A program made the translations under genes and the position numbers. Shown here in pieces: positions 7,083 to 20,214 of a DNA stretch of 26,230 nt. The first letter of the stretch is position 1, and every line of letters starts with the position of its first letter. This DNA is from a virus, in the UHGV virus genome UHGV-0206901, one strand, 5' to 3'. The notes under the pieces are model-generated. The model was not told the DNA's origin and made no database searches. It worked only from the letters and a program-made list of their open reading frames with translations.

Positions 7083-7284
7083 GTGCGCCATTGTGACGGC
7101 ATACACAGATATCTCGATGCTGTGCGGCGATGATCTGAAATATCTGTATGACTATCTTTCCGGCTTTATCGGCAGACCGGTGTATACACACGAGATTCCT
7201 GCGGTGGCTGCGGCTTACAGAGACAAGATCAGAGAGGACTTCCTCGATCTGTGCAGGAACGCAAAGGAGGCGGATGATGGATAA
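7069..7284 (+). CDS. Small hypothetical protein
   Basis: 71-aa ORF starting at an internal ATG of ORF 6928-7284, overlapping the upstream methyltransferase stop; no recognisable motif; the 11-nt overlap with the next gene suggests translational coupling. Confidence 0.4.
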   Translation: MTKYECAIVTAYTDISMLCGDDLKYLYDYLSGFIGRPVYTHEIPAVAAAYRDKIREDFLDLCRNAKEADDG

Positions 7285-9487
7285 GAAACACTTGACCCTC
7301 GGCAGCCTGTTTGACGGCTCGGGGGGGTTTCCGCTTGGCGGCATCCTCGCAGGGATCGAGCCGAAGTGGAGCAGCGAAATTGAACCTTTTCCGGTGCTTG
7401 TCACGCACAAGCGACTGCCTGGGGTGAAGCACTACGGCGATGTATCCACACTGAACGGTGCAGAGCTTCCGCCGGTGGATATTATCACCTTCGGCAGCCC
7501 TTGTCAGGATCTGTCCATTGCTGGAAAGCGTGCCGGAATCCATGACGGTGATCGGTCGAACCTGTTCTTTCAGGCGATCCGTATCATCAAAGAAATGAGG
7601 GATGCAACAAATGGACAATACCCGCGATACTGCGTCTGGGAGAATGTCCCCGGCGCTTTCTCCTCCCACGGAGGAGACGATTTCAAAGCTGTCCTCGAAG
7701 CAGTTATCGGAATTAAAGAAGAAGGGATCGAGGTGCCTGCGCCTGAAAATCACAGATGGGCAAAATCAGACGTATATCTGGGAGACGGATGGAGCGTGGC
7801 TTACCGAGTTTTCGATGCTCAATACTGGGGTGTCCCCCAACGCAGAGCAAGAATCTACCTTGTCGCAGATTTTGCTGGCGGAAGTGCCGGAGAAATACTA
7901 TTTAAGTCCGAAGGCGTGTCTGGGTATACTCCGCAGGGCTTCCGTTCGTGGCAAGGAACTGCCGGAGGTGCTGAAGAAAGCACTGGAGCGACAGGCTGGC
8001 GGTCTGACGCTGGAGGTGGAACCCTCTGCGTAAACTGTCAGGGCACGGCAGGTGTCGGTATCACAGAAGATAAGGCACTGGCACTTGTCGCACAGGATCA
8101 CGGGAATCATCCAGCCGTTCTTGCCGCAGGTTTTTCCACAGAGCATAGTGCAAAAGCACGAAGCATCGGCTACGAAGAGGAAGTATCTCCTACACTGAGA
8201 GCTGGTGTTGTTCCGGCGGCAATGGAGCTTCAAAGCTATCCCGTTGAAAATCATCCTGCGGATTCGAGAGTCAGGGTGCGTGAGGACGGAAAGTGTCAGG
8301 GGCTTACAGGCAGAATGGGAACAGGCGGCGGAAACGTACCGCTTGTAGCAGAACCGATTACGCTAAAAATCCGCAGTGGTGGCGGAAATGGTGGTAAGGG
8401 CGCTATCTGGCAAACAGATAAATCCGCAACTCTTGCAACCAATAATGACCAGACGCTTTTTCAGCCGGAGGTCAAGGCTTTCGGTGTATGCAGCAAGCAC
8501 TCCAATGCGATGATGTCCGACAATCCGCACAGCGGATTCTATGAGGCGACCACAAGCAGAACGCTCGACCAAAGTGGTGGAAATTCTGTGACATCGAATC
8601 AGGGCGGCATCTGCGTGGTAGCACCTGCGCCTGAAACCTTCGATGTGCGTTTCACATCAGACGGTACAAAAAACGCTCGTGGGCATTGTTACCCGACAGA
8701 CATTTCCCGATGCCTTGATACGAGCGAGGCGAACCCGGACAGCAATCACGGAGGAGTTGCGGTGGTGGCTCTCGAACCGGGGGCGGCATCCCGTATCGGC
8801 GGTCATGTATACAGTGACGGCAAAAGCGGCACGCTCCGTGCAAATGCCGGAGACAATCAGCAGGCTGTTGTGGTAGCCGAGAAGGAGACCTATGCACTGC
8901 AAGGCTCGATGATCGGTCGCGCCGATCAGAACGGACCGCAGGGTGATGGTATCAATGAAGATGTGTGCTTTACGCTGAACACAACAGACAGGCATGCTGT
9001 CGCAGCACCGGATGCCGATCACTACAGCACAAGCAAGAATTCTCACCACACAGTCGCCGCACATGAACAGGCAAACACGCTGGTCGCATCCGACTGGAAG
9101 GATCCTCCGCTTGTGAACGACCTTCCGAATGACGAGCCGGTATATATCGTTCGTCGTCTGACTCCGGTGGAGTGCGCCAGATTGCAGGGATTCCCCGACT
9201 GGTGGTGTGCCGACCTTGCGATTCCCGATCCGACCGATGAGGAGATCACCTTCTGGATGGAAGTATGGGAAACTTGGAGACAGATCACAAATCCCAAGGG
9301 AAAGCCGAAAACGGAAAAGCAGATCCGCAAATGGTTGGCTGATCCGTACACGGACAGTGCCGAGTACAAGTTATGGGGCAACGGTGTCTCAGAGCCCGTT
9401 GTGTTCTTCGTGCTATCCGGCATTGCCTGGGCGGCACAGAATTCTGAAACTAATGCAGCAAATTGTGAACATTCTGATACTATGTAA
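7274..9487 (+). CDS. DNA cytosine-5 methyltransferase with an exceptionally long variable (target-recognition) region, possibly multispecific
   Basis: ATG at 7274 preceded by AAGGAGG (7264-7270); motif I LFDGSGG, motif IV GSPCQDLS, motif VI ENVPG, motif VIII QRRARIYLV, C-terminal RRLTPVECARLQGFPDWW; about 480 aa lie between motifs VIII and IX. Confidence 0.9.
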   Translation: MMDKKHLTLGSLFDGSGGFPLGGILAGIEPKWSSEIEPFPVLVTHKRLPGVKHYGDVSTLNGAELPPVDIITFGSPCQDLSIAGKRAGIHDGDRSNLFFQAIRIIKEMRDATNGQYPRYCVWENVPGAFSSHGGDDFKAVLEAVIGIKEEGIEVPAPENHRWAKSDVYLGDGWSVAYRVFDAQYWGVPQRRARIYLVADFAGGSAGEILFKSEGVSGYTPQGFRSWQGTAGGAEESTGATGWRSDAGGGTLCVNCQGTAGVGITEDKALALVAQDHGNHPAVLAAGFSTEHSAKARSIGYEEEVSPTLRAGVVPAAMELQSYPVENHPADSRVRVREDGKCQGLTGRMGTGGGNVPLVAEPITLKIRSGGGNGGKGAIWQTDKSATLATNNDQTLFQPEVKAFGVCSKHSNAMMSDNPHSGFYEATTSRTLDQSGGNSVTSNQGGICVVAPAPETFDVRFTSDGTKNARGHCYPTDISRCLDTSEANPDSNHGGVAVVALEPGAASRIGGHVYSDGKSGTLRANAGDNQQAVVVAEKETYALQGSMIGRADQNGPQGDGINEDVCFTLNTTDRHAVAAPDADHYSTSKNSHHTVAAHEQANTLVASDWKDPPLVNDLPNDEPVYIVRRLTPVECARLQGFPDWWCADLAIPDPTDEEITFWMEVWETWRQITNPKGKPKTEKQIRKWLADPYTDSAEYKLWGNGVSEPVVFFVLSGIAWAAQNSETNAANCEHSDTM

Positions 9488-9526
9488 GCTGTTCTGTATG
9501 GGCTTTCCGTGATATGCACAATCTCA

Positions 9527-9542
9527 GGGGCGTAAAAGCCCC
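9527..9542 (+). terminator. GC hairpin downstream of the C5-methyltransferase gene (possible operon terminator)
   Basis: GGGGC gtaaaa GCCCC stem-loop about 40 nt after the stop; the downstream T-tract is weak. Confidence 0.35.
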
Positions 9543-9564
9543 GTACATTCTACGATTTACAGTC

Positions 9565-9593
9565 TTGATATATCCGCCGTAATGGCGTAATAT
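9565..9593 (+). promoter_or_regulatory. Sigma-A-type promoter cassette 1 (TTGATA, 17 bp, TAATAT) with conserved leader
   Basis: -35 TTGATA at 9565-9570, 17-bp spacer, -10 TAATAT at 9588-9593; leader GTGACTACCGTAAGGGAAAACCGAGCGGAATCAAAAACGAAACGGAGGA precedes the ATG at 9650. Confidence 0.6.
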
Positions 9594-9649
9594 GTGACTA
9601 CCGTAAGGGAAAACCGAGCGGAATCAAAAACGAAACGGAGGATTCACAT

Positions 9650-10771
9650 ATGAAAACTTATGCAATGATCATTGGAAACCGCAAGGAACTCACAAAGAGA
9701 ATCGAGGCACTCACCGGAGAGCGCAGCGTATACACCTTCATGCCGAGATGCGCCTATGAGATCGGGGCATTCGCAGTCGAGAAGGACGGCACACTTACGG
9801 CACAGGACGATGCCAACCAGAGCGTGATCGACACCCTGAGAGCCGAGGGTATGATCGGTGATGAGATCATCGCAGAGAGCATCGAGGCAGTCGAGCCGGA
9901 GCAGACCGATGAGACCGCAGAGCCGGAACAGCCTGCACCGCCCGTAAGCACCGATGAATGGGACGATGATGAGGATGACGACGATGAGAACAGCGTCGAG
10001 GGCGAGAATGCGGAAGCGGAAGAGCCGGAGGAGTCCGAAGAAAATGCCGATAAGTCGGAGCCTGCCGCAGAGCCAGAAGCCGCACCTCCTGCGACCGAGG
10101 ATGCCTGGGATGATGAACCGGAGGATGAACCCGGCGACGAGCCGGAAGAAACCACCGAGCTTCCTGAACCGCTGACCGCAGAGATCAGCTTCCCGCTGAG
10201 CCATCACACGGTGCAGAGCCTTACGAACCTCATCTGCATGATCCACTCCCGCGGCGCACTTCTCAGCAAGGCGACCGGCGGAGAATTCTTCGCAGACAAG
10301 AGCCTCGCCGATGCGATCCTCGATGACAAGACCTTCCGCAGCATCCACGAGCTTATCGCCTACATCAGAGTATGGGAGGAAACGAATCCCGAACTGAAGG
10401 GCATCCGTTTCGCCGATGACAAGCTGATCTTTGACGGCTTCGGTGCAGCACAGGATGCCGAGACGGTGCAGACCTTCACCAAGCTCGCCGCAGCCATGAA
10501 CAGGATGGCGATCACGCAGAAACGTGTGCAAGCAAAGGATGTCGATGACAGCAACGAAAAGTACGCACTCCGCATCTGGCTGATCCGCCTTGGGCTGAAC
10601 GGTGCTGACTTCAAGGCTGACCGCAAGCGCCTCATGACTCCGCTTTCCGGACACACCGCATTCCGCAACGATGAGGAGCGTGAACGCTGGGAGGCAAAGC
10701 AAAAGGCAAAGCGTGATGCTGCCAGAACCGAACTGACCGAGGAGGATGAAAACGATGCAGTTTCCGAATGA
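9650..10771 (+). CDS. Amidoligase-like paralog, probably catalytically degenerate, with a ~95-aa acidic low-complexity insertion
   Basis: 373 aa; the C-terminal half aligns by eye with the downstream amidoligase-like ORF (TVQSLTNL vs TPQTLRNL; KYALRIWLIRLGLNGADF vs KFAMRTWLMRMGFIGDEF); the GVEIE and HCH motifs of the paralog are absent; residues ~80-172 are D/E/P-rich. Confidence 0.55.
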   Translation: MKTYAMIIGNRKELTKRIEALTGERSVYTFMPRCAYEIGAFAVEKDGTLTAQDDANQSVIDTLRAEGMIGDEIIAESIEAVEPEQTDETAEPEQPAPPVSTDEWDDDEDDDDENSVEGENAEAEEPEESEENADKSEPAAEPEAAPPATEDAWDDEPEDEPGDEPEETTELPEPLTAEISFPLSHHTVQSLTNLICMIHSRGALLSKATGGEFFADKSLADAILDDKTFRSIHELIAYIRVWEETNPELKGIRFADDKLIFDGFGAAQDAETVQTFTKLAAAMNRMAITQKRVQAKDVDDSNEKYALRIWLIRLGLNGADFKADRKRLMTPLSGHTAFRNDEERERWEAKQKAKRDAARTELTEEDENDAVSE

Positions 10772-11003
10772 ACGACAGCTCAAAGCCTTGCGGGAGCGTT
10801 ATCCCGAAGGCACCCTTATCCGACTGAAGCACATGGACGATCCCTACGCACCAGTGCCGCCCGGAACAATTGGCGAGGTTCAGATGGTCGATGACGGCGG
10901 CAACATACACATGGTCTGGCAGAACGGCAGAACGCTTTCTCTTATAGAAGGCGTGGATGATTTCCAGGTCATTTCTGACCGCAATGGGGGCCCCGGAAAA
11001 TAA
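10755..11003 (+). CDS. Small hypothetical protein
   Basis: ATG at 10755 is 8 nt after GGAGGA and overlaps the upstream gene end; 82 aa, glycine-rich beta-like sequence (GTIGEVQMVDDGGNIHMVWQNG). Confidence 0.5.
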   Translation: MQFPNERQLKALRERYPEGTLIRLKHMDDPYAPVPPGTIGEVQMVDDGGNIHMVWQNGRTLSLIEGVDDFQVISDRNGGPGK

Positions 11004-11116
11004 GAGATCCTATTCCATTGTATCCGAGTATACCATAGAATTTCAAGTATATCAAGTGTACACATACACCAGATATGAGCAATGTATTTTCCTCGATATT
11101 CTGTGGTTTTAGCGGC

Positions 11117-11145
11117 TTGCTATATCCTCCGAAAGACGGTAACAT
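11117..11145 (+). promoter_or_regulatory. Sigma-A-type promoter cassette 2 (TTGCTA, 17 bp, TAACAT) with conserved leader
   Basis: -35 at 11117-11122, -10 at 11140-11145; leader GTGACACAACGGAAGGGCAAATGCCCACCGAAAAACCGAATCGGAGGA; ATG at 11201. Confidence 0.6.
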
Positions 11146-11200
11146 GTGACACAACGGAAGGGCAAATGCCCACCGAAAAACCGAATCGGAGGATACCAAA

Positions 11201-12145
11201 ATGACTGAGAAAACCGCACAGCAGATCAACAGAATGAAGGAGCAGACCATCGGGGTTGAGATCGAGATGAACAACATCACCCGCAAGGCTGCCGCAAAGC
11301 TCGCCGCTGACTTCTTCGGCACGAACCGCTACGAGGACACGGCCTGCCGCAACGGCTACTACACTTGGAGCGCATGGGATGCACAGGGGCGCGAGTGGAA
11401 ATTCCAGCGGGACGTGAGCATCGCAGGCTCCGACAGCGAAAAGTGCGAACTGGTCACACCGATCCTGCACTACGCAGACATCGAAACCCTGCAGGAGCTT
11501 GTGAGAAAGCTCAGGAAGGCAGGAGCGCGCAGTGATTACACGCGGGGATGTGGAGTCCACTGCCATATTGGAGCCCAGGGACACACACCGCAGACCTTGA
11601 GAAACCTCGCAAACCTGATGGCAAGCCACGAAACCCTGATCGCCGAGGCAATCAGAGTAGACCAGAGCAGAATGCGCCGCTACTGCAGAACAGTTGACCC
11701 GAGATTCCTTGAACAGCTCAACCGCAAAAAGCCCACCACGATGGCACAGCTTGCGGACATCTGGTACGGCGCACAGGGCTGCGAATACGGCAGAACCCAC
11801 CACTACAACGACAGCCGCTATCACATGCTCAACCTCCACGCTACCTTCACCAAAGGCACGGTCGAGTTCAGACTTTTCCAGTTCGCACCGCCCTCAAACG
11901 GCAAGCAGAACGGGCTCCACGCAGGCAAGCTCAAGAGCTACATTCAGCTCTGCCTCGCAATGAGCCAGATGGCAAAGGACCTGCGGAGCGCCAGCCCCAA
12001 GGAGCAGCAGAAGGAAAACAAAAAGTTCGCCATGCGGACTTGGCTGATGAGAATGGGATTCATCGGGGATGAATTCGCAACGGCGAGAGAGGTCCTCACT
12101 GAGAACCTTACGGGCGACAACAGCTTCCGCTTCGGCAGATCTTAA
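11201..12145 (+). CDS. Putative amidoligase (glutamine-synthetase-like / gamma-glutamyl-cysteine-ligase-like ATP-dependent amide ligase family)
   Basis: 314 aa; N-terminal IGVEIEMNN strand with paired glutamates and a central GCGVHCHIG motif, both typical of Amidoligase_2-type enzymes as I recall them; own promoter cassette; followed by an AIG2-like gene. Confidence 0.65.
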   Translation: MTEKTAQQINRMKEQTIGVEIEMNNITRKAAAKLAADFFGTNRYEDTACRNGYYTWSAWDAQGREWKFQRDVSIAGSDSEKCELVTPILHYADIETLQELVRKLRKAGARSDYTRGCGVHCHIGAQGHTPQTLRNLANLMASHETLIAEAIRVDQSRMRRYCRTVDPRFLEQLNRKKPTTMAQLADIWYGAQGCEYGRTHHYNDSRYHMLNLHATFTKGTVEFRLFQFAPPSNGKQNGLHAGKLKSYIQLCLAMSQMAKDLRSASPKEQQKENKKFAMRTWLMRMGFIGDEFATAREVLTENLTGDNSFRFGRS

Positions 12146-12410
12146 AGGCCTGCCCTTCGGGGCGGAAGAACAAGCGGAACGGCACGGCGGCGCACACAGC
12201 CGCCACGGTCTCGGCTCTCGCCTCGGTCGGTGCTTCTGCTTCGCAGAGGTTGCCACTGGCAACCCGCACCCCCGTGTGGGGCGGAAAGGGTATCCTCCGA
12301 ATCGGTATCCCATCTCAGTCAACCGCGCCACACAGCGCAAATGTAGGCAAGGCATAAAATGCACAACATACGGCACAGAATCGCCCTCGATGATCTGTTC
12401 ATTTACTCGC

Positions 12411-12439
12411 TTGATAATGCCGCCGAAATGAGTTAACAT
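12411..12439 (+). promoter_or_regulatory. Sigma-A-type promoter cassette 3 (TTGATA, 17 bp, TAACAT)
   Basis: -35 at 12411-12416, -10 at 12434-12439; leader AGCACTACCGCAAGGAAAAAACGCAAAGGAG; ATG at 12479. Confidence 0.55.
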
Positions 12440-12478
12440 AGCACTACCGCAAGGAAAAAACGCAAAGGAGAACATAGC

Positions 12479-12940
12479 ATGAACAAGAAAAAATACTACA
12501 TAGCCTACGGCAGCAACCTCAACATCCGCCAGATGCGATTCCGCTGCCCAGGCGCAAAGCCTATCGGCATCACGGTGATTCCCGACTACGAACTGCTCTA
12601 CAAGGGCAGCAAGACCGGCGCGTACCTGACCATAGAACCGAAGAAGAACGGCATCGTTCCGATTGCGGTATGGGAGGTCACCGCAGCAGACGAGAAGCGG
12701 CTGGATGCCTACGAGGGCTGCCCGACCTTCTACTACAAGAAGAACGTCTGCCTGCCGGTGAAGCTGGCAAGCGGCAAGACCAAGCGCCTGACAGCATTCG
12801 TCTACATCATGCACGAGGAGCGCAGCCTCGGAATTCCGTCGCTTGCCTACATCCGCACCTGCGAGGAAGGCTATCGCAACTTCGGATTTGATTTGAAGTA
12901 CCTTGACAGGGCATACATGAGAAGCACAAAGGAGGACTGA
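12479..12940 (+). CDS. AIG2 / gamma-glutamyl cyclotransferase (GGCT)-like protein
   Basis: 153 aa; N-terminal YIAYGSNLN matches the Y-x-A-Y-G-S-N-L/M hallmark of the GGCT/AIG2 fold; a candidate catalytic Glu lies in LDAYEGCP. Confidence 0.7.
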   Translation: MNKKKYYIAYGSNLNIRQMRFRCPGAKPIGITVIPDYELLYKGSKTGAYLTIEPKKNGIVPIAVWEVTAADEKRLDAYEGCPTFYYKKNVCLPVKLASGKTKRLTAFVYIMHEERSLGIPSLAYIRTCEEGYRNFGFDLKYLDRAYMRSTKED

Positions 12941-12942
12941 AA

Positions 12943-13146
12943 ATGAAAGAACAAGTTTTTGAAAAGCGTACATGTCCGAAATGCGGACGCACCTACACCG
13001 AGCGCCCTGCCCTATCCCGCTACGACAACGACACGATCATCTGCCCGGACTGCGGCACGAGGGAGGCGCTTGAAAGCATCGGCGTCGGACGCGAGGAACA
13101 GGACAAGATTCTCGGCATTATCCACGAGAAGTACAACGGCGAATAA
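12943..13146 (+). CDS. Small zinc-ribbon protein
   Basis: 67 aa; GGAGG RBS; CPKCG...CPDCG cysteine pairs; the ATG is 2 nt after the upstream stop. Confidence 0.55.
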   Translation: MKEQVFEKRTCPKCGRTYTERPALSRYDNDTIICPDCGTREALESIGVGREEQDKILGIIHEKYNGE

Positions 13147-13154
13147 GGCGGCAC

Positions 13155-13178
13155 AAAGGGGCGTTACAGCCCCTTTCC
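13155..13178 (+). terminator. Putative intrinsic terminator
   Basis: AAAGGGGC gttaca GCCCCTTT hairpin followed by TCC; 8 nt after the stop of the zinc-ribbon gene. Confidence 0.5.
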
Positions 13179-13317
13179 GCATTCTCAGGGATAACTTATC
13201 CCCCACTTTCCGGGCGTGACACGGCGCGTTCTGGCGCAAACTGTGGGCTTGTGTATATGTACCTGTTCAGCTTGCTGAAAACGGCGATTCTTCTACGATT
13301 TATTTTGCACATAGGCG

Positions 13318-13346
13318 TGGACATATCGCCGGGATCATGGTAATAT
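13318..13346 (+). promoter_or_regulatory. Sigma-A-type promoter cassette 4 (TGGACA, 17 bp, TAATAT) with upstream A/T-rich element
   Basis: TTTATTTTGCACATAGGCG upstream; -35 at 13318-13323; TG-extended -10 at 13341-13346; leader CACAACGGCAGGGGCAGACAGCCCACC. Confidence 0.6.
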
Positions 13347-13404
13347 GCTACACAACGGCAGGGGCAGACAGCCCACCGGAATTCATAACATGGAGGATAC
13401 GAAT

Positions 13405-13875
13405 ATGAACGACAGCTACTTTGAGGAGATGACCTTCCAGTGCGCCGCCTATGAACGCGCCAAAAAGGAGCGCGCCGAGCGCAAGGCTCAGATTGCCGAA
13501 GCCCACGGCTACGACAGCCCGGAGATGGACGCTTGGTACGCTGAGGAGAAGGCGGCGGGTCCTTACCCCTACAGCGGCGGTGAGATGAAAGCCTACTGGG
13601 TGTACAAGATGCGCCGCGAGAACGACGGTGACGAGTTCGAGATGAGCGATTACTGCTGGGACAAGGAATTCCACGATTTCATCGAAACGCTCCGCAAGCT
13701 AGGCATCACCGAGTTCACGATCACCAATCAGAGCACGGCGCTGATGGAGAACATCTACGGATTTATTGCAGAAGGCTGCACGATGGTCGGAACGCACACC
13801 ATCACCAAGAAGAGCCTGCGCTGGGGCGAGGAAGAATACGAAACGGCACAGGGCATCCTTTTCAAGGTGAACTGA
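13405..13875 (+). CDS. Hypothetical protein
   Basis: ATG at 13405 is 8 nt after GGAGGA, the same position as in the other cassettes; 156 aa; no recognisable motif. Confidence 0.55.
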   Translation: MNDSYFEEMTFQCAAYERAKKERAERKAQIAEAHGYDSPEMDAWYAEEKAAGPYPYSGGEMKAYWVYKMRRENDGDEFEMSDYCWDKEFHDFIETLRKLGITEFTITNQSTALMENIYGFIAEGCTMVGTHTITKKSLRWGEEEYETAQGILFKVN

Positions 13876-13883
13876 TATCGACA

Positions 13884-13920
13884 GGAGCAGGGCTTCGGCT
13901 CTGCTCCCCCTCCCCCTTTT
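13884..13920 (+). terminator. UUCG-tetraloop hairpin, putative terminator
   Basis: GGAGCAGGGC ttcg GCTCTGCTCC (10 bp with one G-U pair) followed by CCCCTCCCCCTTTT; the same hairpin recurs at 15715-15738. Confidence 0.45.
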
Positions 13921-13993
13921 CCTCATGTGTAAATCCTACAATACGAAAGGCTGAGATCGGCGATTCTTCTACGTTTTATTTTGCACATAGGCG

Positions 13994-14022
13994 TGGACTT
14001 ATCAGCAGGATCATGGTAATAT
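13994..14022 (+). promoter_or_regulatory. Sigma-A-type promoter cassette 5 (TGGACT, 17 bp, TAATAT)
   Basis: Near-identical to cassette 4, including the upstream TTTATTTTGCACATAGGCG; leader GTGACACAACGGAAGGGCAGAACGCCTACCGAAAAACGAAACGGAGGA. Confidence 0.6.
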
Positions 14023-14077
14023 GTGACACAACGGAAGGGCAGAACGCCTACCGAAAAACGAAACGGAGGATAACACC

Positions 14078-14398
14078 ATGAACCCCTACACACTGAGAAA
14101 GAGCCTGAACCTGATTGATGCCAACACGGCGATCATCCGCGAGGACTTCGAGAGCCTCTTCTGCAAGACTGCAGAGCGTGTCACCTTTACCTTCAACGGT
14201 TGGGACGGCAAGAGCTATGATGGCGAGAGGCGCAGCGGTTACGTTTACCGCACCATCATCGAGGGCTACGAGAATGTGAGATTCTTTAAGGTCGGCAAGG
14301 GACTGCATTACATCGATGAGGACAGCAGCATTACCGAGAAGGCTACGGGCATCGCCCACAAGGAAGCAGAGTGGCTGGTCGATGTGAAGAGAGCATAA
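14078..14398 (+). CDS. Hypothetical protein
   Basis: 106 aa; GGAGGA 7 nt upstream of the ATG. Confidence 0.55.
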   Translation: MNPYTLRKSLNLIDANTAIIREDFESLFCKTAERVTFTFNGWDGKSYDGERRSGYVYRTIIEGYENVRFFKVGKGLHYIDEDSSITEKATGIAHKEAEWLVDVKRA

Positions 14399-14463
14399 GC
14401 AAAACAGCGGAGCCCTTCCTGCGGGGAGGGCTTACCGCAGAAAAAACATGGAGGTTTACGAAC

Positions 14464-14847
14464 ATGAGTACGAATTCAAGAGTCGGAATCCTGCATCAGG
14501 ACGGCGCCACGGAGACAATCTACTGCCATTGGGACGGCTACCCCGAACACCAGATGCCCATCCTCACCGAGCATTATAACACCGCCGAGAAGGTCAAGGC
14601 ACTGCTTGCCCTTGGAGACATCAGCATCCTCGGCGAGCGCCTTGCTCCCGATGCGGATGAGCCGCACAGCTTTGAAAAGCCTGCCGATGGTGTGACGGTT
14701 GCTTACCACCGCGACCGCAAAGAGCCGATGCAGCCTGCGGTCACCCACAAGAGCGTTGTTTCCCTGATGAGCGATGACTGGGGCATTCCGTATTACTACC
14801 TTTTCGATGAGGAAAAAGGAGCATGGCTTCCGCCGACCGAGGACTGA
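14464..14847 (+). CDS. Hypothetical protein
   Basis: Internal ATG at 14464 is 9 nt after GGAGG; 127 aa; probably co-transcribed with the preceding gene (no promoter cassette in between, only a hairpin). Confidence 0.5.
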   Translation: MSTNSRVGILHQDGATETIYCHWDGYPEHQMPILTEHYNTAEKVKALLALGDISILGERLAPDADEPHSFEKPADGVTVAYHRDRKEPMQPAVTHKSVVSLMSDDWGIPYYYLFDEEKGAWLPPTED

Positions 14848-15276
14848 TAGGTTCAGCCCTGCGGGGCTGACTTGCCCCACGTTGTCCTTTGTGAGGTTTT
14901 CCTGCGATAAGCTTGCCCCTGCGGAAAGCCGCCTCACACGGCGCGTTTGTGTGCTGACCGCAGTCATCGCAAACCTGTCGGCCACGGGAACATGGACGGA
15001 GCGAGAAGTGATGGAAACGCTGCTGGATGTCTTTGAACCGAAGGAGCTTGAACAGCTCGGCTACGGCGACTGCGTGAACGCATACTTGGAAGAGTACGGC
15101 GGATGGCGACGACACACGCACCACGTTGCCTCGTGTGGGGCGGTGCCGGGGAGATGCGTACAGCTTGCCCCTGCGAAAAGCCGCCTTACACGGCGCGTTC
15201 TGGCGCGTCCTATACGATGTACAATTCCGCCCGACTTCCCGCCTCATGTTTGTCACATTTATTTTGCAGACAGACG

Positions 15277-15305
15277 TGGACTTTTCTGCGAAAAGACGGT
15301 AATAT
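15277..15305 (+). promoter_or_regulatory. Sigma-A-type promoter cassette 6 (TGGACT, 17 bp, TAATAT)
   Basis: Upstream TTTATTTTGCAGACAGACG; leader GTGACTACCGCAAGAGAAGCGGAATCAATCAAAAGGAG; ATG at 15353. Confidence 0.6.
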
Positions 15306-15352
15306 GTGACTACCGCAAGAGAAGCGGAATCAATCAAAAGGAGCGAATCTAC

Positions 15353-15706
15353 ATGAAAATTCTGGTATGCGAACCCGGCAAGCACCCCTACGTCAAGGAC
15401 ATCGAGTCGGGGCTGGAGAACCTTCAGCACGAGGTGGACGGACTGATTCAGGCCCTCTACCCATTTTCCGAAGAGGCGGCTGTTGTGTGCAACGAAGAAG
15501 GGCTGTTCCGCGATGACCTCGAATGGAACAGAACGGTCGATCCCTATGGTCCGATCAAGGGAACATTCTTCATTTGTGGGCTCGGCTTTGAAGATTTTAC
15601 AGGACTGACCGATGAACAGATCGAAAAGTACACTAAGCTCTTCTGGCCTCCTGAGCTTTTCATCCCGACACCGAACGGCATGGTGGTGCTTCACATTGTG
15701 GAATGA
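15353..15706 (+). CDS. Hypothetical protein
   Basis: 117 aa, starting at the ATG placed like the other cassette-driven genes; the longer ORF-track frame (14774-15706) reads through repeat and promoter sequence and is probably not all coding. Confidence 0.55.
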   Translation: MKILVCEPGKHPYVKDIESGLENLQHEVDGLIQALYPFSEEAAVVCNEEGLFRDDLEWNRTVDPYGPIKGTFFICGLGFEDFTGLTDEQIEKYTKLFWPPELFIPTPNGMVVLHIVE

Positions 15707-15809
15707 CCGCAACAGGGGCAGGGCTTCGGCTCTGCTCCGCACCATTCCCCGGTCATAATGTACACAACTGAACGCCGAAAAATTCAGAAATGATCGTGAT
15801 TACTCACGC

Positions 15810-15838
15810 TTGATAATGTAGGCAAGAAGAGTTATACT
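15810..15838 (+). promoter_or_regulatory. Sigma-A-type promoter cassette 7 (TTGATA, 17 bp, TATACT)
   Basis: Leader GTGTACAACGGAAGGGCGGAAAGCCCAGCCGAAAACGAAAATGCGGAGG; ATG at 15896. Confidence 0.6.
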
Positions 15839-15895
15839 GTGTACAACGGAAGGGCGGAAAGCCCAGCCGAAAACGAAAATGCGGAGGTACACACC

Positions 15896-16075
15896 ATGAA
15901 AACGAAGCAGGAACTGATCGAGAAGGCAAAGAAAGAGTGGGGCGAGACTTGGAACGAGGGCATGATCGAGTACGATGCCGAGTACAACGAGTACATCGTC
16001 TGGGTAGGCAAGCCGGACATCTACAAAGCCTTCTTCGATGCCGACACCCTCAGATGCATTGGCACGAAGTGCTGA
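15896..16075 (+). CDS. Small hypothetical protein
   Basis: 59 aa; GGAGG 7 nt upstream; lysine/glutamate-rich. Confidence 0.45.
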   Translation: MKTKQELIEKAKKEWGETWNEGMIEYDAEYNEYIVWVGKPDIYKAFFDADTLRCIGTKC

Positions 16076-16130
16076 GAACAACCGCCGCCCTTCGGGGCGG
16101 CACAACACCAATACTAAGGAGGACATTTAC

Positions 16131-16403
16131 ATGAGCGAGAACACAGAAAAGCGCGATGCAGCCGAAGAACTAGAACTTACCGATGCACAGGCAGACCGCA
16201 ACGATGACATCTACGAGGCAGCTTTTGAATTCTGCAAGGTGCTGACCGAGAACCCCGACCTCGAATGGGACATGGCGTTCCTCGGTGAGATCGCCGACCT
16301 TGCCGCTGGCATCATGACCGAGCAGGGACACAAGGTGCGGTTCCCCAGTGTGGTCACCGAGCAGGACGGCACGCAGTACATTGAAGAATACTACGGCGGC
16401 TGA
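16131..16403 (+). CDS. Small acidic hypothetical protein
   Basis: 90 aa; AAGGAGG 7 nt upstream; preceded by the GCCGCCC ttcg GGGCGGC hairpin (16083-16100); ends ...YIEEYYGG. Confidence 0.5.
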   Translation: MSENTEKRDAAEELELTDAQADRNDDIYEAAFEFCKVLTENPDLEWDMAFLGEIADLAAGIMTEQGHKVRFPSVVTEQDGTQYIEEYYGG

Positions 16404-16604
16404 TCGGCAAAACGGAGCAGTCCTTCTGCGGAGGGGCTGTTCCACGCCACGTTCGCTTGTGTGGGGGGCTTACGGCTTTCTGCGGATATCTTGCCCCGCG
16501 ATAAAAGCCGCCCACACGGCGCATTTGTGTGCCTCCTGCGGCAAGGCATAATATGTACAACAACCGACAAAAAATCGCCTTGCACATTCTGGTAGTTTAG
16601 CCGC

Positions 16605-16633
16605 TTGATATATCTGCCGAAAAGAGTTATAGT
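16605..16633 (+). promoter_or_regulatory. Sigma-A-type promoter cassette 8 (TTGATA, 17 bp, TATAGT)
   Basis: Leader GTGTACAACGGAACGGGAAACCGAGCCGAAAACTACGAAAGAACGAGG; ATG at 16690. Confidence 0.55.
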
Positions 16634-16689
16634 GTGTACAACGGAACGGGAAACCGAGCCGAAAACTACGAAAGAACGAGGTAAACACT

Positions 16690-16926
16690 ATGTGGCACGA
16701 AGGCACGATTCTGGCACCGACCAAGGAAGGCAAGACGGTGGTTCACTACTGGGCAAAGGTCTACGACGAGGGCAGCCAGTACGGCATCAACGAGGGCAGA
16801 ATCAGTAAACTAACACTCAAGGAGAATGGCAAGGTCATCTACAACTACGACAGAGGCGAGGATGTACCCGAGCAGAACGAGGCTGCGAAGATTGCCCTTG
16901 CGATCCTGATGTACGAGTACAAGTAA
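16690..16926 (+). CDS. Small hypothetical protein
   Basis: 78 aa ORF downstream of cassette 8. Confidence 0.5.
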   Translation: MWHEGTILAPTKEGKTVVHYWAKVYDEGSQYGINEGRISKLTLKENGKVIYNYDRGEDVPEQNEAAKIALAILMYEYK

Positions 16927-17014
16927 ATAGAACGGTCGGTGGGCGGTAGCATTAAGCCGCCCATCCAAACCAAGACGGACACACATATAAATTCAAGGTG
17001 GATATACATAGGAG

Positions 17015-17044
17015 AGGCTTGCAGCACGCAGGCCTTTTCTTTAT
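17015..17044 (+). terminator. Intrinsic terminator between the accessory island and the packaging genes
   Basis: AGGCTTGC agcac GCAGGCCT (8 bp, one G-U) followed by TTTTCTTTAT; ends about 30 nt before the terS start. Confidence 0.6.
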
Positions 17045-17074
17045 GCAGATTTTTTGAGAAAAGGAGTGATGCGG

Positions 17075-17548
17075 ATGGCTCAGAGAGGCAGAAAACCGAC
17101 GCCGACAGCAATCAAGGAACTGGAAGGCAATCCGGGCAAGCGTCCGCTGAATGATGCAGAGCCGAAGCCGGAACGCAAGGCACCGCCCTGTCCGAAATGG
17201 CTGGAGCCCGAAGCAAAAAAGGAATGGCGCAGGCTGTCAAAGCAACTGGAGCAGATTGGTGTGCTGACCGAGGTCGATCAGGCGGCATTCGCATCCTACT
17301 GTCAGGCATACGCACGATGGAAAGAAGCCGAGGAATTCATGACACAGCACGGCACGATCGTGAAAACAAAATCAGGTTACTGGCAGCAGGTGCCGCAGGT
17401 ATCCATTGCACAGACCTATCTGAAGATCATGAATAAGATCGCAGAACAGTTCGGTCTGACTCCTGCCGCAAGAAGCAGGATCACCGCAGGTGCGGATATG
17501 AAGGACGCTGCCGTTGACGATATGGATGAACTTCTCGGAGGTGACTGA
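17075..17548 (+). CDS. terS: Terminase small subunit
   Basis: AAGGAG 8 nt upstream of the ATG at 17075; 157 aa; basic N-terminus (RGRKPTPTAIKELEGNPGKRP) and overall pattern typical of P27-family small terminases; sits directly upstream of, and overlaps, the large terminase. Confidence 0.8.
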   Translation: MAQRGRKPTPTAIKELEGNPGKRPLNDAEPKPERKAPPCPKWLEPEAKKEWRRLSKQLEQIGVLTEVDQAAFASYCQAYARWKEAEEFMTQHGTIVKTKSGYWQQVPQVSIAQTYLKIMNKIAEQFGLTPAARSRITAGADMKDAAVDDMDELLGGD

Positions 17549-20214
17549 TGGCGAGAACGGCAAAGGCAAGAGAAAGACCTGCCAACTATCCGAAACTGAA
17601 GGATTATAAACCGACACGCTTTATGCTGCCGGAATCGCACTACGATGCGGCAAAGGCTGACCGAGCTGTGCGGTTCATCGAGAATCTCTGCCATACCAAA
17701 GGACGCTGGGCAGGAAAGCCGTTCTGGTTGCTGCCGTGGCAGGAACAGATCATCCGGGATATTTTCGGCATCGTCAAAGAGGATGATACCCGCCAATTCC
17801 GCACAGCTTATGTCGAAATTCCAAAGAAAAATGGGAAGCAGCTTGCACTGGATACACCGATCCCGACTCCGCAGGGATTCACCAATATGGGAGATCTGAA
17901 GGTCGGAGATACAGTATTCGATGAAAACGGCATTCCGTGCCATGTGGTTGCGAAAAGTCCTGTGGATGATACAGAGCAAGCCTACAAGCTGACCTTCAAG
18001 GACGGCAGCTCGATCATCGCCGGAGAACGGCATCTGTGGAACTGTCAGTATATTTACGGCAAACGCAAGGATGTTCTCTGGACGACCGGCGAGATCTATC
18101 GCAGGACTTCAGAATACAGACGGCGATTCTCAGACCGACCGCAGTCAAAGCGGGATTCTCTGATCCGAATTCCGGTGTGCGGTGTCCTTCAGACAGAAGC
18201 GGCAGTTTTACCGATTGATCCGTATCTGTACGGCTACTGGCTCGGAAACGGTAATGTGACCATGCCGGAGATCACTGTTCGGACGGAGGATGTCGAGGAT
18301 ATCATCTCGAATATTCCGTATAAGGTACACAACCGTTATCCGCAGAAATGCGGCGGCAGTGAGATCATAAAGTACAATGAACTGAAAGCAGTACTACTTG
18401 ACAGCTTCCGTGAAAAGAAGATCCGACCAGAATATCTGAGGGCATCCGCAGAGCAGAGATGGGCATTACTGCAAGGGCTTATGGATTCGGACGGCTGTAT
18501 CGGTGAACGCAAAGGGCAAAGTGTGTATGTCACAACGCTGCGAGAGCTGGCGCTTTCCGTCAGAGAACTGCTGTGGTCGCTCGGTATCAAAAATGCAGTG
18601 AAATGTGAGCCTTCTACTCGGCATGGGTGGCCGACTGGAGAGATTTTGTATATCGTCCGGTTTACTACCTTTGACGATCAGCCGACATCAAGACTGAAAC
18701 GAAAGTACACACGCACACGGGCGCGGGTGAAAGAAACTCGCTCCTGTTTTCATTATTTACTGGACATTCAGCCTGTGGATCATCCTGTGAAAATGCAGTG
18801 TATTCAGGTGGATAGTCCTAGCCACCAATATCTTGCTGGAACATCGTTTGTGCCTACGCACAACAGTGAGCTTGCAGCCGCAATTGCGCTGTATCTGCTC
18901 TACGCTGACAACGAGCCATCCGCCGAGGTCTACGGTGCTGCCGCCGACCGACAGCAGGCATCCATTGTATTCGATGTCGCCAAAAGAATGGTTGAGATGA
19001 CACTGGCACTTCTGAAACGCTCAAAAATCATGGCGGCGACAAAGCGTCTGGTGAATTACAGCAATGTCGGTTTCTATCAGGTGCTTTCGGCGGAGGTCGG
19101 AACAAAACACGGTCTGAATGTATCTGGGCTTGTGCTTGACGAGCTTCATGTTCAGCCGAACCGTAATCTTGTGGACGTTCTCACAAAGGGATCCGGTGAT
19201 GCCCGTACTCAGCCGCTGTACTTCCTGATCACCACAGCCGGCACTGACCGAAACAGCATCTGCTATGAATACCACACCAAGGCAAAAGACATCCTCGAAG
19301 GGCGGCGTATCGATCCGTCATTCTATCCTGTCATTTACGGTCTGGATGACGGCGACGACTGGAATTCAGAGGAATCGTGGTACAAGGCAAATCCGTCTCT
19401 CGAATACACAATTACCATAGACCGTGTGCGGGATGCCCATCGTGAAGCACTGACAAATCCTGCGGAAGAAAATGTATTCCGTCAGCTTCGTCTTGATCAG
19501 TGGGTTGGCAGTGCGGTTGCATGGGTGCCGGAGCATATCTACGACAAAGGCAATATACCAATCAATCCGGAGTCTCTGTACGGACGCGAGTGCTATGCAG
19601 GACTGGACCTTTCCAGTACATCTGATATCACGGCATTTGTTCTGGTATTCCCACCGTTGTATGAGGGTGATAAATACATCGTTGTACCCCACTTCTGGCT
19701 GCCGAGGGAAACACTTGACCTGCGTGTACGGCGAGACCATGTTCCCTACGATGTATGGGAGCGCATGGGGCTATTTCATATCACCGAGGGCAATGTGGTG
19801 GACTACAACTTCGTGCGGAAAACGATCAATGAGCTGCACACGATGTATAACATCAAGGAAATTGCAGCAGACCGCTGGAATGCCACACAGCTTATCACCG
19901 ACCTGCAGGGTGACGGTTTTACCGTTGTCCCGATGGGCATGGGCTTCAAGGATATGTCGCCACCGATGAAGGAGCTTTACAAGCTGCTGCTTGAGGGCAA
20001 GTTTATCCATGGCGGAAATCCTGTCCTGCGATGGATGGCAGGAAATGTGGTCGCTGAAATTGACGCGGCGGAAAATATCAAGCCGTCCAAGAAAAAGTCT
20101 ACAGAGAAAATTGACGGCATCGTAGCATGGATCATGGCACTTGACCGCTGCATCCGCCACGAAATGCAGGGCAGTGTCTATGACGAACCCGGCCACGATC
20201 TTGTGGTCATCTGA
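17548..20214 (+). CDS. terL: Terminase large subunit, interrupted by an in-frame intein at the Walker A (P-loop) site
   Basis: 888-aa ORF; N-extein ends ...EIPKKNGK and C-extein begins SELAAAIALYLLYADNEPSAEVYGAAADRQQ, which together rebuild a canonical PKKNGKS P-loop; C-terminal nuclease-domain-like region; followed by the portal gene. Confidence 0.92.
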   Translation: MARTAKARERPANYPKLKDYKPTRFMLPESHYDAAKADRAVRFIENLCHTKGRWAGKPFWLLPWQEQIIRDIFGIVKEDDTRQFRTAYVEIPKKNGKQLALDTPIPTPQGFTNMGDLKVGDTVFDENGIPCHVVAKSPVDDTEQAYKLTFKDGSSIIAGERHLWNCQYIYGKRKDVLWTTGEIYRRTSEYRRRFSDRPQSKRDSLIRIPVCGVLQTEAAVLPIDPYLYGYWLGNGNVTMPEITVRTEDVEDIISNIPYKVHNRYPQKCGGSEIIKYNELKAVLLDSFREKKIRPEYLRASAEQRWALLQGLMDSDGCIGERKGQSVYVTTLRELALSVRELLWSLGIKNAVKCEPSTRHGWPTGEILYIVRFTTFDDQPTSRLKRKYTRTRARVKETRSCFHYLLDIQPVDHPVKMQCIQVDSPSHQYLAGTSFVPTHNSELAAAIALYLLYADNEPSAEVYGAAADRQQASIVFDVAKRMVEMTLALLKRSKIMAATKRLVNYSNVGFYQVLSAEVGTKHGLNVSGLVLDELHVQPNRNLVDVLTKGSGDARTQPLYFLITTAGTDRNSICYEYHTKAKDILEGRRIDPSFYPVIYGLDDGDDWNSEESWYKANPSLEYTITIDRVRDAHREALTNPAEENVFRQLRLDQWVGSAVAWVPEHIYDKGNIPINPESLYGRECYAGLDLSSTSDITAFVLVFPPLYEGDKYIVVPHFWLPRETLDLRVRRDHVPYDVWERMGLFHITEGNVVDYNFVRKTINELHTMYNIKEIAADRWNATQLITDLQGDGFTVVPMGMGFKDMSPPMKELYKLLLEGKFIHGGNPVLRWMAGNVVAEIDAAENIKPSKKKSTEKIDGIVAWIMALDRCIRHEMQGSVYDEPGHDLVVI
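17839..18864 (+). mobile_element. Intein (~342 aa) with an embedded double-motif LAGLIDADG homing endonuclease, inside terL
   Basis: Block A-like LALDTPIPT...GDLKVGDTVF; block B GERHLW; two LAGLIDADG motifs (LYGYWLGNGNV and LLQGLMDSDGCI); terminal ...FVPTHN followed by Ser +1. Confidence 0.8.

Follow-up and report, generated by a model that had tools for sequence, protein, structure and literature searches.

What does a protein do that resembles an amidoligase, is encoded next to an amidoligase, and carries none of the residues on which amidoligase catalysis would depend? The question is raised by an open reading frame (ORF) at positions 9650-10771 of a stretch of 26,230 nucleotides from the UHGV virus genome UHGV-0206901 (hereinafter, the window), a segment of a tailed-phage or prophage genome in which every gene lies on the plus strand. 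The ORF is a genuine conserved gene of a prophage-type element in gut Clostridia. We read its product as a catalytically dead, ancient paralogue of the Amidoligase_2 enzymes that likely acts as a non-catalytic adaptor or regulator, a reading to which we assign a probability of about 0.55 and in which the mechanism is inferred. The ORF, its parts and the neighbouring enzyme gene are as follows.

9650..10771, plus strand: pseudo-amidoligase gene, ATG start, 373 amino acids plus stop; net charge -53, isoelectric point (pI) 4.3
9650..9874, plus strand: N-terminal alpha/beta domain, residues 1-75, with near-invariant R11, K12, G23, Y28 and P32
9875..10162, plus strand: acidic disordered linker, residues 76-171, with 45 D/E and 1 K/R; predicted local distance difference test score (pLDDT) below 50
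10163..10669, plus strand: C-terminal domain, residues 172-340, homologous to amidoligase residues 117-312, with the catalytic positions substituted; pLDDT about 90
10544..10669, plus strand: basic two-helix tail, residues 299-340, NEKYALRIWLIRLGLNG..K.DRKRLM..LSGHTAFR, common to the ORF and the amidoligase
11201..12145, plus strand: active-type amidoligase (Amidoligase_2, glutamine-synthetase-like fold), 314 amino acids; net charge +12, pI 9.4

The Amidoligase_2 proteins are reportedly glutamine-synthetase-like carboxylate-amine ligases of phages and plasmids, as described by Iyer et al. in Mol Biosyst in 2009. The product of the downstream gene is recognized by the Pfam Amidoligase_2 model (PF12224) at E = 1e-55 (189.6 bits), with the match ending at residue 254 of 314. 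Judged by sequence comparison, the C-terminal half of the ORF product is clearly homologous to this enzyme, far beyond chance. BLASTP aligns ORF residues 270-339 with amidoligase residues 241-310 (E = 8e-11), and hhalign comparison of the family profiles aligns residues 173-339 with residues 117-312 (probability 97.9%, E = 4e-13). With more diverse profiles, comprising 133 ORF-family representatives and 48 amidoligases taken from related loci, the same half reaches a probability of 99.9% and E = 2.8e-32. A sequence-only reading of the locus had aligned the two proteins by eye along their whole length, and its pairings of HHTVQSLTNL with GHTPQTLRNL and of KYALRIWLIRLGLNG... with KFAMRTWLMRMGFIG... 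are reproduced by the BLASTP and hhalign alignments. The best-conserved part of both families is the two-helix tail, which lies outside the Pfam Amidoligase_2 model and carries the shared motif NEKY-A-x-R-x-W-L-x-R-x-G-x-x-G ... K..R..L...L.G..AFR; R325 is kept in 133 of the 133 ORF-family representatives. Two further positions, H186/H128 and N193/N135 (ORF/enzyme), are also common to both families.

The active site has fared differently. Nine positions, namely, E20, E22, E83, H120, H122, R206, H208, E222 and R224, are invariant or nearly so in the 48 amidoligases, and all nine have given way in the ORF family to residues that vary and are non-catalytic. The correspondences include the following.

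Enzyme H120 aligns with ORF E178; T, S, E, N, A or V in the ORF family
Enzyme H122 aligns with ORF S180; S, A or T in the ORF family
Enzyme E222 aligns with ORF I260; T, I, S or V in the ORF family
Enzyme R224 aligns with ORF D262; T, D or S in the ORF family
Enzyme E20 and E22 align with ORF T3 and A5, in the register that pairs R11 with R28; variable over 110 representatives

The enzyme segment SRYHMLNL is missing from the ORF family as well. As far as the alignments tell, the ORF product has kept none of the residues with a presumed role in binding metal, ATP or the carboxylate substrate, and it is a pseudoenzyme by the sequence criteria of homology combined with loss of catalytic residues. 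The sequence-only reading, which had noted the absence of the HCH (HxH) motif and proposed a pseudo-enzyme related to the amidoligase, is borne out on both counts: E178 and S180 stand opposite H120 and H122, and the C-terminal homology, the loss of nine catalytic positions and a weakly consistent fold all point the same way. An alignment with the catalytic residues conserved, the outcome named beforehand as contrary evidence, was not what emerged, all nine being substituted. Set against PF12224, the ORF product shares a homologous C-terminal half (E 3e-32), a clade-specific basic tail, the same phage module and, it appears, the fold class; it differs in having lost all the catalytic positions, in being split by an acidic disordered linker and in being strongly acidic where the enzyme is basic.

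The predicted structures are weakly consistent with this assignment. The AlphaFold2 (AF2) model of the ORF product has a mean pLDDT of 71.6 and a predicted template modelling score (pTM) of 0.48, with confident modelling of both folded domains (the N-terminal one at about 80-88); the amidoligase model has a mean pLDDT of 77.6 and a pTM of 0.81. The order of secondary-structure elements is alike in the two models (strand, helix, strand run, helix), the strand run comprising four strands in each, one of which is only two residues long in the ORF product, and the ORF model contains one additional strand (69-73) before the former HxH strand. In a Foldseek search of viral models (BFVD), the top named matches are phage amidoligases, with a probability of 0.98-0.99 but an E-value of about 0.05, and the best structural match in the fold search is Dop, with PafA also matched, so that the fold evidence for membership in the glutamine-synthetase-like class is weak. 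Prediction of both structures, suggested earlier as a check, thus recovers a similar order of elements and indicates a common fold only weakly.

The ORF belongs to a large family for which neither Pfam nor NCBIfam has a model. It has 898 database matches, and its family counts 3282 representatives of clusters at 50% identity (E<=1e-3), 339 of them reaching E<=1e-30; two of the cluster representatives, P0382 and P0389, resemble assembly chimeras. The ORF has no match in Pfam at E<=0.1 and none in NCBIfam, 48 diverse family members yield no match to PF12224 at E<=1, and searches of PDB sequences with the ORF-family and amidoligase profiles return chance-level matches only. The ORF does match PHROG 2443 (‘amidoligase enzyme’) at E = 9.4e-37 over residues 10-356. 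Many polar residues are conserved in most of the 133 representatives (H186, N193, S200-R201, S206-K207, T209, D269, Q290, R292, E303-K304), and because the family is large and many of its polar residues are near-invariant, the product appears to be functional rather than decaying. A Shine-Dalgarno sequence, GGAGGA, lies 7 nt 5' of its ATG. The identity of the tail between the ORF product and the amidoligase is the same within a locus as between loci (0.360 vs 0.359, p=0.27), which indicates that the duplication is old. The derivation by duplication proposed from the sequence alone agrees with the C-terminal homology and needs to be qualified: by these comparisons, the ORF is an ancient paralogue in a large family of its own. 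Concerted evolution or co-evolution of the shared tail was considered and rejected on the same equality of identities.

How, then, is the dead paralogue connected to the enzyme? The genes that complete the module are listed below.

10755..11003, plus strand: DUF4314 gene, Pfam E 1e-27, likely start ATG 10755
12479..12940, plus strand: GGACT/AIG2 gamma-glutamyl(amine) cyclotransferase-like gene, Pfam E 2e-10; co-occurs with the amidoligase
12943..13146, plus strand: gene of a small zinc-ribbon protein that travels with the module

Among viral contigs in IMG/VR, a true amidoligase is found near the ORF-family member in 57 of 74 evaluable loci, DUF4314 in 65, GGACT in 50, and DUF4314 only in 16; among contigs of GTDB genomes, 30 of 40 loci contain a true amidoligase and 10 do not. 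Overall, about 75% of the ORF homologues adjoin an active amidoligase. Viewed from the enzyme side, in a sample of enzymes at least 75% identical to that of the window, the ORF lies upstream of the amidoligase in each of the 56 evaluable loci, and GGACT is likewise present in every one. The relationship is asymmetric, given that in this last sample the enzyme with GGACT is never seen without the ORF, and that in the other two the ORF is also seen without the enzyme. The dead paralogue forms the core, in most cases together with DUF4314, and the enzyme with GGACT is the add-on. One phage lineage (L045, L048, L056, L066, L079) has an amidoligase truncated to about 215 amino acids, with GGACT and DUF4314 both gone; here the enzyme arm seems to be in decay, next to a pseudo-amidoligase that is still whole.

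The acidic linker is the other conspicuous feature of the ORF product. The D/E/P-rich segment first placed at about 9887-10166 is confirmed as nucleotides 9875-10162, that is, 96 residues. Its description as an insertion of about 95 residues stands insofar as the segment is genuine, but it is not particular to this ORF: a linker occupies the same place family-wide and is always acidic. In 121 diverse representatives, it measures 0-281 residues (median 56), with a mean of 36% D/E vs 3% K/R and no conserved sequence, and relative to the enzyme it sits in the loop that immediately precedes the former HxH strand. The linker is acidic in loci with and without a nearby amidoligase, and in some loci that have both the amidoligase and GGACT (L080, L084 and L075) it is only 1-4 residues long. 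The net charge of the family has a median of -18 and ranges from -83 to +9, compared to +4 to +23 for the amidoligases. To judge from these sequences, selection keeps the negative charge of the linker and not its sequence or length. Linker length was considered as a tracker of amidoligase presence and set aside, the association being merely marginal (p=0.048, with phylogeny ignored).

We can now outline how the dead paralogue might work. The ORF product would form the core, itself without enzymatic activity, of a phage accessory system built in modules, together with DUF4314 and with or without the amidoligase and GGACT. It keeps those non-catalytic parts that it has in common with the enzyme (H186 and N193, the helical subdomain of the C-terminal half and the basic two-helix tail), and its small N-terminal alpha/beta domain is tethered to the C-terminal domain by the disordered linker. 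A presumably retained docking surface may bind the partner or target of the enzyme, or the basic enzyme itself, and the product may thereby recruit, restrain or compete with the amidoligase; the acidic linker could make electrostatic contacts with the basic enzyme or mimic a polyanionic ligand. The amidoligase would be the writer of gamma-glutamyl-type amide bonds, which GGACT could reverse, as presumed from the general chemistry of glutamine-synthetase-like ligases and of GGACT. Like the amidoligase and GGACT genes, the ORF would be expressed from its own copy of a promoter cassette, with DUF4314 probably translationally coupled to it. Of the roles suggested from the sequence alone, that of a regulator or scaffold fits best, with the ORF upstream in all 56 amidoligase loci and with the opposite charges of the two proteins.

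Several observations weigh against this reading. About 25% of the ORF homologues, including those of Streptococcus Javan phages and locus L063, have neither an amidoligase nor GGACT nearby, from which it follows that the ORF is not a mere accessory and must have an enzyme-independent function. The conserved polar residues, instead of lining a binding surface, could build an active site of a new kind. The N-terminal 75 residues show no significant similarity to the N-terminal half of the amidoligase in hhalign (E 0.015-0.066, probability at most 3%, with shallow and with deeper profiles). Finally, the C-terminal domain also occurs behind other N-terminal modules, namely, one with a GNAT-like acetyltransferase motif (P0352) and a long helical region (P0365).

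The last two of these observations feed the alternative that survives best, albeit as a somewhat unlikely one: that only a C-terminal module is shared, so that an unrelated N-terminal domain has been linked to an enzyme fragment and the ORF product is not a whole-length amidoligase derivative. None of 150 ORF-family representatives has a recognizable amidoligase N-terminal half, which fits this view. Against it, the best hhalign register of the N-terminal regions is co-linear and pairs the near-invariant R11 of the ORF with the invariant R28 of the enzyme, the secondary-structure order of the two N-terminal halves matches, and the PHROG profile spans residues 10-356 in one stretch, although the last point is weak evidence for N-terminal homology because the profile may contain both sub-families. 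The claim of alignment along the whole length, and the profile alignment with which it was to be checked, accordingly hold for the C-terminal half and not, at a significant level, for the N-terminal one. The N-terminal pairing of RKELTKRIEALTG with RKAAAKLAADFFG scores an E-value of 0.066 at a probability below 1%, even if it falls in the same co-linear register, and MIIGN, formerly placed opposite GVEIE, gives way in that register to MKTYA; the ExE motif is missing in either case.

An unlikely alternative is that the ORF product is a stand-alone anti-defence protein or decoy, the acidic disordered segment of which would imitate a polyanion such as DNA and so tie up a DNA-binding restriction or defence protein of the host, with no involvement of the amidoligase. 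The extreme, conserved negative charge suits such a role, and so do the loci without an amidoligase and the position of the ORF in an accessory island, directly 3' of three DNA methyltransferase genes and a PAPS-reductase-like gene and before the terminase. Over the same loci, the ORF also diverges more quickly than the enzyme (31-97% identity as against 48-98%). Compared with the DNA mimics Ocr and ArdA, the ORF product is likewise phage-encoded, has a very low pI and is encoded next to anti-restriction-type methyltransferases; unlike in these proteins, its charge resides in a disordered, length-variable linker and not in a rigid DNA-shaped surface, and no sequence or fold similarity to Ocr or ArdA was found. 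Furthermore, some family members are almost linkerless (0-5 residues), and conservation is highest in the folded domains and the basic tail, not in the acidic segment. PADLOC, the models of which represent defence rather than anti-defence systems, gives no match for the ORF, DUF4314, the amidoligase or GGACT. A decoy role would also leave unexplained why the ORF is present in every sampled amidoligase locus.

Rather improbable is a role of the ORF product as substrate or carrier, in which the amidoligase would make isopeptide or gamma-glutamyl bonds on a conserved Lys or on the Glu side chains within the linker, by analogy with Pup and PafA, with GGACT as the eraser. The structural matches to Dop and PafA, the Pup-like character of the Glu-rich disordered segment, the co-occurrence of GGACT with the amidoligase and the constant presence of the ORF beside the sampled enzymes are compatible with this role, and the known substrates of GGACT are gamma-glutamyl-amines. 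The linker itself speaks against it, being 1-4 residues long in the three loci named above, equally acidic without the enzyme, weakly associated in length with enzyme presence and almost devoid of Lys; the substrate role proposed earlier is weakened to the same extent. Cyclization of the GGACT type requires a free alpha-amino group, which internal Glu residues lack. The pupylation system resembles the phage module in that both encode, side by side, two diverged paralogues (in the phage pair, of presumed glutamine-synthetase-like fold) and in that an acidic disordered polypeptide plays a part in each. It differs in that Dop is an enzyme that keeps its active site, in that the acidic segment here is internal to the dead paralogue, in that no protein of the module has a conserved GGQ/GGE-type C-terminus, and in that the surrounding genes are phage genes, with no proteasome context noted around the module. 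DUF4314, likewise without a conserved Pup- or ubiquitin-like C-terminus, was considered as a Pup-like modifier and rejected because the C-termini of 113 DUF4314 proteins vary (GGPGK, SGG, CRKLL, RRVDHD and others).

By analogy with the same system, one might go further and view the dead amidoligase, DUF4314, the active amidoligase and GGACT as a reversible, pupylation-like protein-tagging system of the phage, in which the dead paralogue would be a substrate-recruiting adaptor or an acidic tag donor, the amidoligase would cross-link its Glu residues to Lys residues of host or phage targets, and GGACT-like chemistry would reset the tag; we regard this scheme as highly speculative. Least plausible of all is that the ORF product retains enzymatic activity, through an active site that has moved or differs and that consists of the family's own conserved polar residues: however well these are kept, H186, N193 and the tail residues are also kept in the true enzyme, outside its catalytic set, every metal- and phosphate-binding position of the fold is lost, and no Pfam, NCBIfam or PDB sequence match points to other chemistry.

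The signals around the genes bear on how the dead paralogue and the enzyme would be expressed. Repeat analysis, a promoter scan and alignment of eight upstream regions reveal eight related promoter-like cassettes within 9.5-16.7 kb.

9564..9623, plus strand: promoter-like cassette, copy 1, TTGATA-17-TAATAT with conserved leader, upstream of the ORF (repeat family D1/D10, promoter scan)
11123..11204, plus strand: promoter/leader cassette, copy 2, upstream of the amidoligase
12410..12469, plus strand: promoter-like cassette, copy 3, upstream of GGACT
13299-13351, 13975-14081, 15258-15310, 15807-15885 and 16604-16663: further copies, each upstream of a small accessory gene

The cassettes share a layout of TTGATA or TGGACA, a 17-nt spacer, TAATAT, GTGAC, ACAACGGAAGGG, an A-rich leader and a GGAGGA Shine-Dalgarno sequence. 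The repetition of this layout implies separate but co-regulated units, and the set looks like moron-like units under one type of phage promoter. The likely DUF4314 start codon (ATG 10755) overlaps the 3' end of the ORF by 17 nt, and its Shine-Dalgarno sequence, GAGGAGGA, lies within the last codons of the ORF, which makes translational coupling of the two genes plausible. A GC-rich hairpin, GGAGCAGGGCTTCGGCTCTGCTCC, is repeated at 13858-13907 and 15689-15738, where the DUF7698 and DUF3846 genes end; in both places it is probably a terminator closing a single cassette. Direct repeats of 45 nt (…CTTGCCCCTGCG.AAAGCCGCC.CACGGCGCGTT) are found at 14903-14947, 15155-15199 and 16481-16525, and also at 13214-13237, in intergenic or poorly coding stretches between the cassettes.

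The partner genes show variations of their own. In many relatives (L042-L059, L005), DUF4314 is fused to a C-terminal zinc ribbon, in proteins of about 152-160 amino acids, which corresponds to the separate gene at 12943-13146 in the window and suggests that the two proteins work together; a sequence search of PDB with the DUF4314 protein finds no relative. At L063 (7050-7761), one of the loci without amidoligase and GGACT, DUF5049, Nmad4 (nucleotide-modification-associated) and the terminase come after the ORF and DUF4314, and the DUF5049 and Nmad4 neighbours hint at an island linked to nucleic-acid modification. Phage genes for DNA hypermodification have been reported to have amidoligase domains in their vicinity (PMC8989533), so that a DNA-directed role of the module is conceivable. 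Streptococcus phage Javan105 encodes a family member of 216 amino acids, annotated as ‘virulence-related protein’, with no amidoligase nearby. Proteins that bear this name in Streptococcus Javan prophages and on a Clostridium butyricum megaplasmid belong to the ORF family, have short linkers and are also encoded between methyltransferases and terminase; they differ in having no amidoligase or GGACT nearby, and the name brings no functional evidence with it.

The complete gene order of the window is as follows.

5' genes, in order: NrdD, NrdG, ParB-N6 methyltransferase, PAPS-reductase-like, N6 methyltransferase, large C5 methyltransferase
After the C5 methyltransferase: ORF (9650-10771), DUF4314, Amidoligase_2, GGACT/AIG2 cyclotransferase, zinc ribbon
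Beyond the zinc ribbon: DUF7698, several small genes, DUF3846, small and large terminase, portal, ClpP-type protease, HK97-type capsid

Near-identical IMG/VR contigs are L009 (97% identity of the ORF) and L010 (95%). The hosts of related prophages are Ruminococcus, Oscillospiraceae, Lachnospiraceae, Blautia, Faecalibacterium and other Clostridia, and some related phage records are assigned to Ca. Heliusvirales. The C5 cytosine methyltransferase gene (7148-9487) is unusually long, encoding 779 amino acids, and its Pfam match falls in two separate stretches, implying a very large variable or target-recognition insert. The large terminase (17548-20214, 888 amino acids) contains a LAGLIDADG_3 domain at residues 303-370, before the match to the ATPase domain, which suggests an intein or an inserted homing endonuclease. 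An antisense ORF of 379 amino acids (9644-10783, minus strand) covers the whole pseudo-amidoligase gene; rather than being a gene, it most likely reflects the GA-rich codons used for the acidic protein. An Rfam scan of 9000-17200 gave no match.

A search of a limited set of literature found no description of an inactive amidoligase paralogue, and papers on polyvalent proteins, Heliusvirales and jumbo phages do not discuss the ORF family. The family has, nevertheless, been annotated. PHROG 2443 lumps it with the amidoligases, and as a result published prophage annotations give ‘amidoligase enzyme’ twice per cassette, with no remark that one of the two is dead; in prophages of C. clostridioforme LM41, the name is given to both genes of the pairs orfs 35/37 and 206/208, with GGCT two genes on (PMC11318856). 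The label implies catalysis, and although the ORF matches the profile, its sub-family lacks the catalytic residues, so that the name is probably wrong for that sub-family.

Cassettes of Amidoligase_2 and GGACT are very common in phages of gut Clostridia. Recognition of the pseudo-amidoligase corrects an error in PHROG/Pharokka annotation, by which both genes are called ‘amidoligase enzyme’, delineates a large family outside the coverage of Pfam and adds a case of apparent selection on the charge, not the sequence, of a disordered linker. The dead paralogue, located upstream of the enzyme in every evaluated enzyme locus and surviving also without the enzyme, probably marks the partner or target of the amidoligase.

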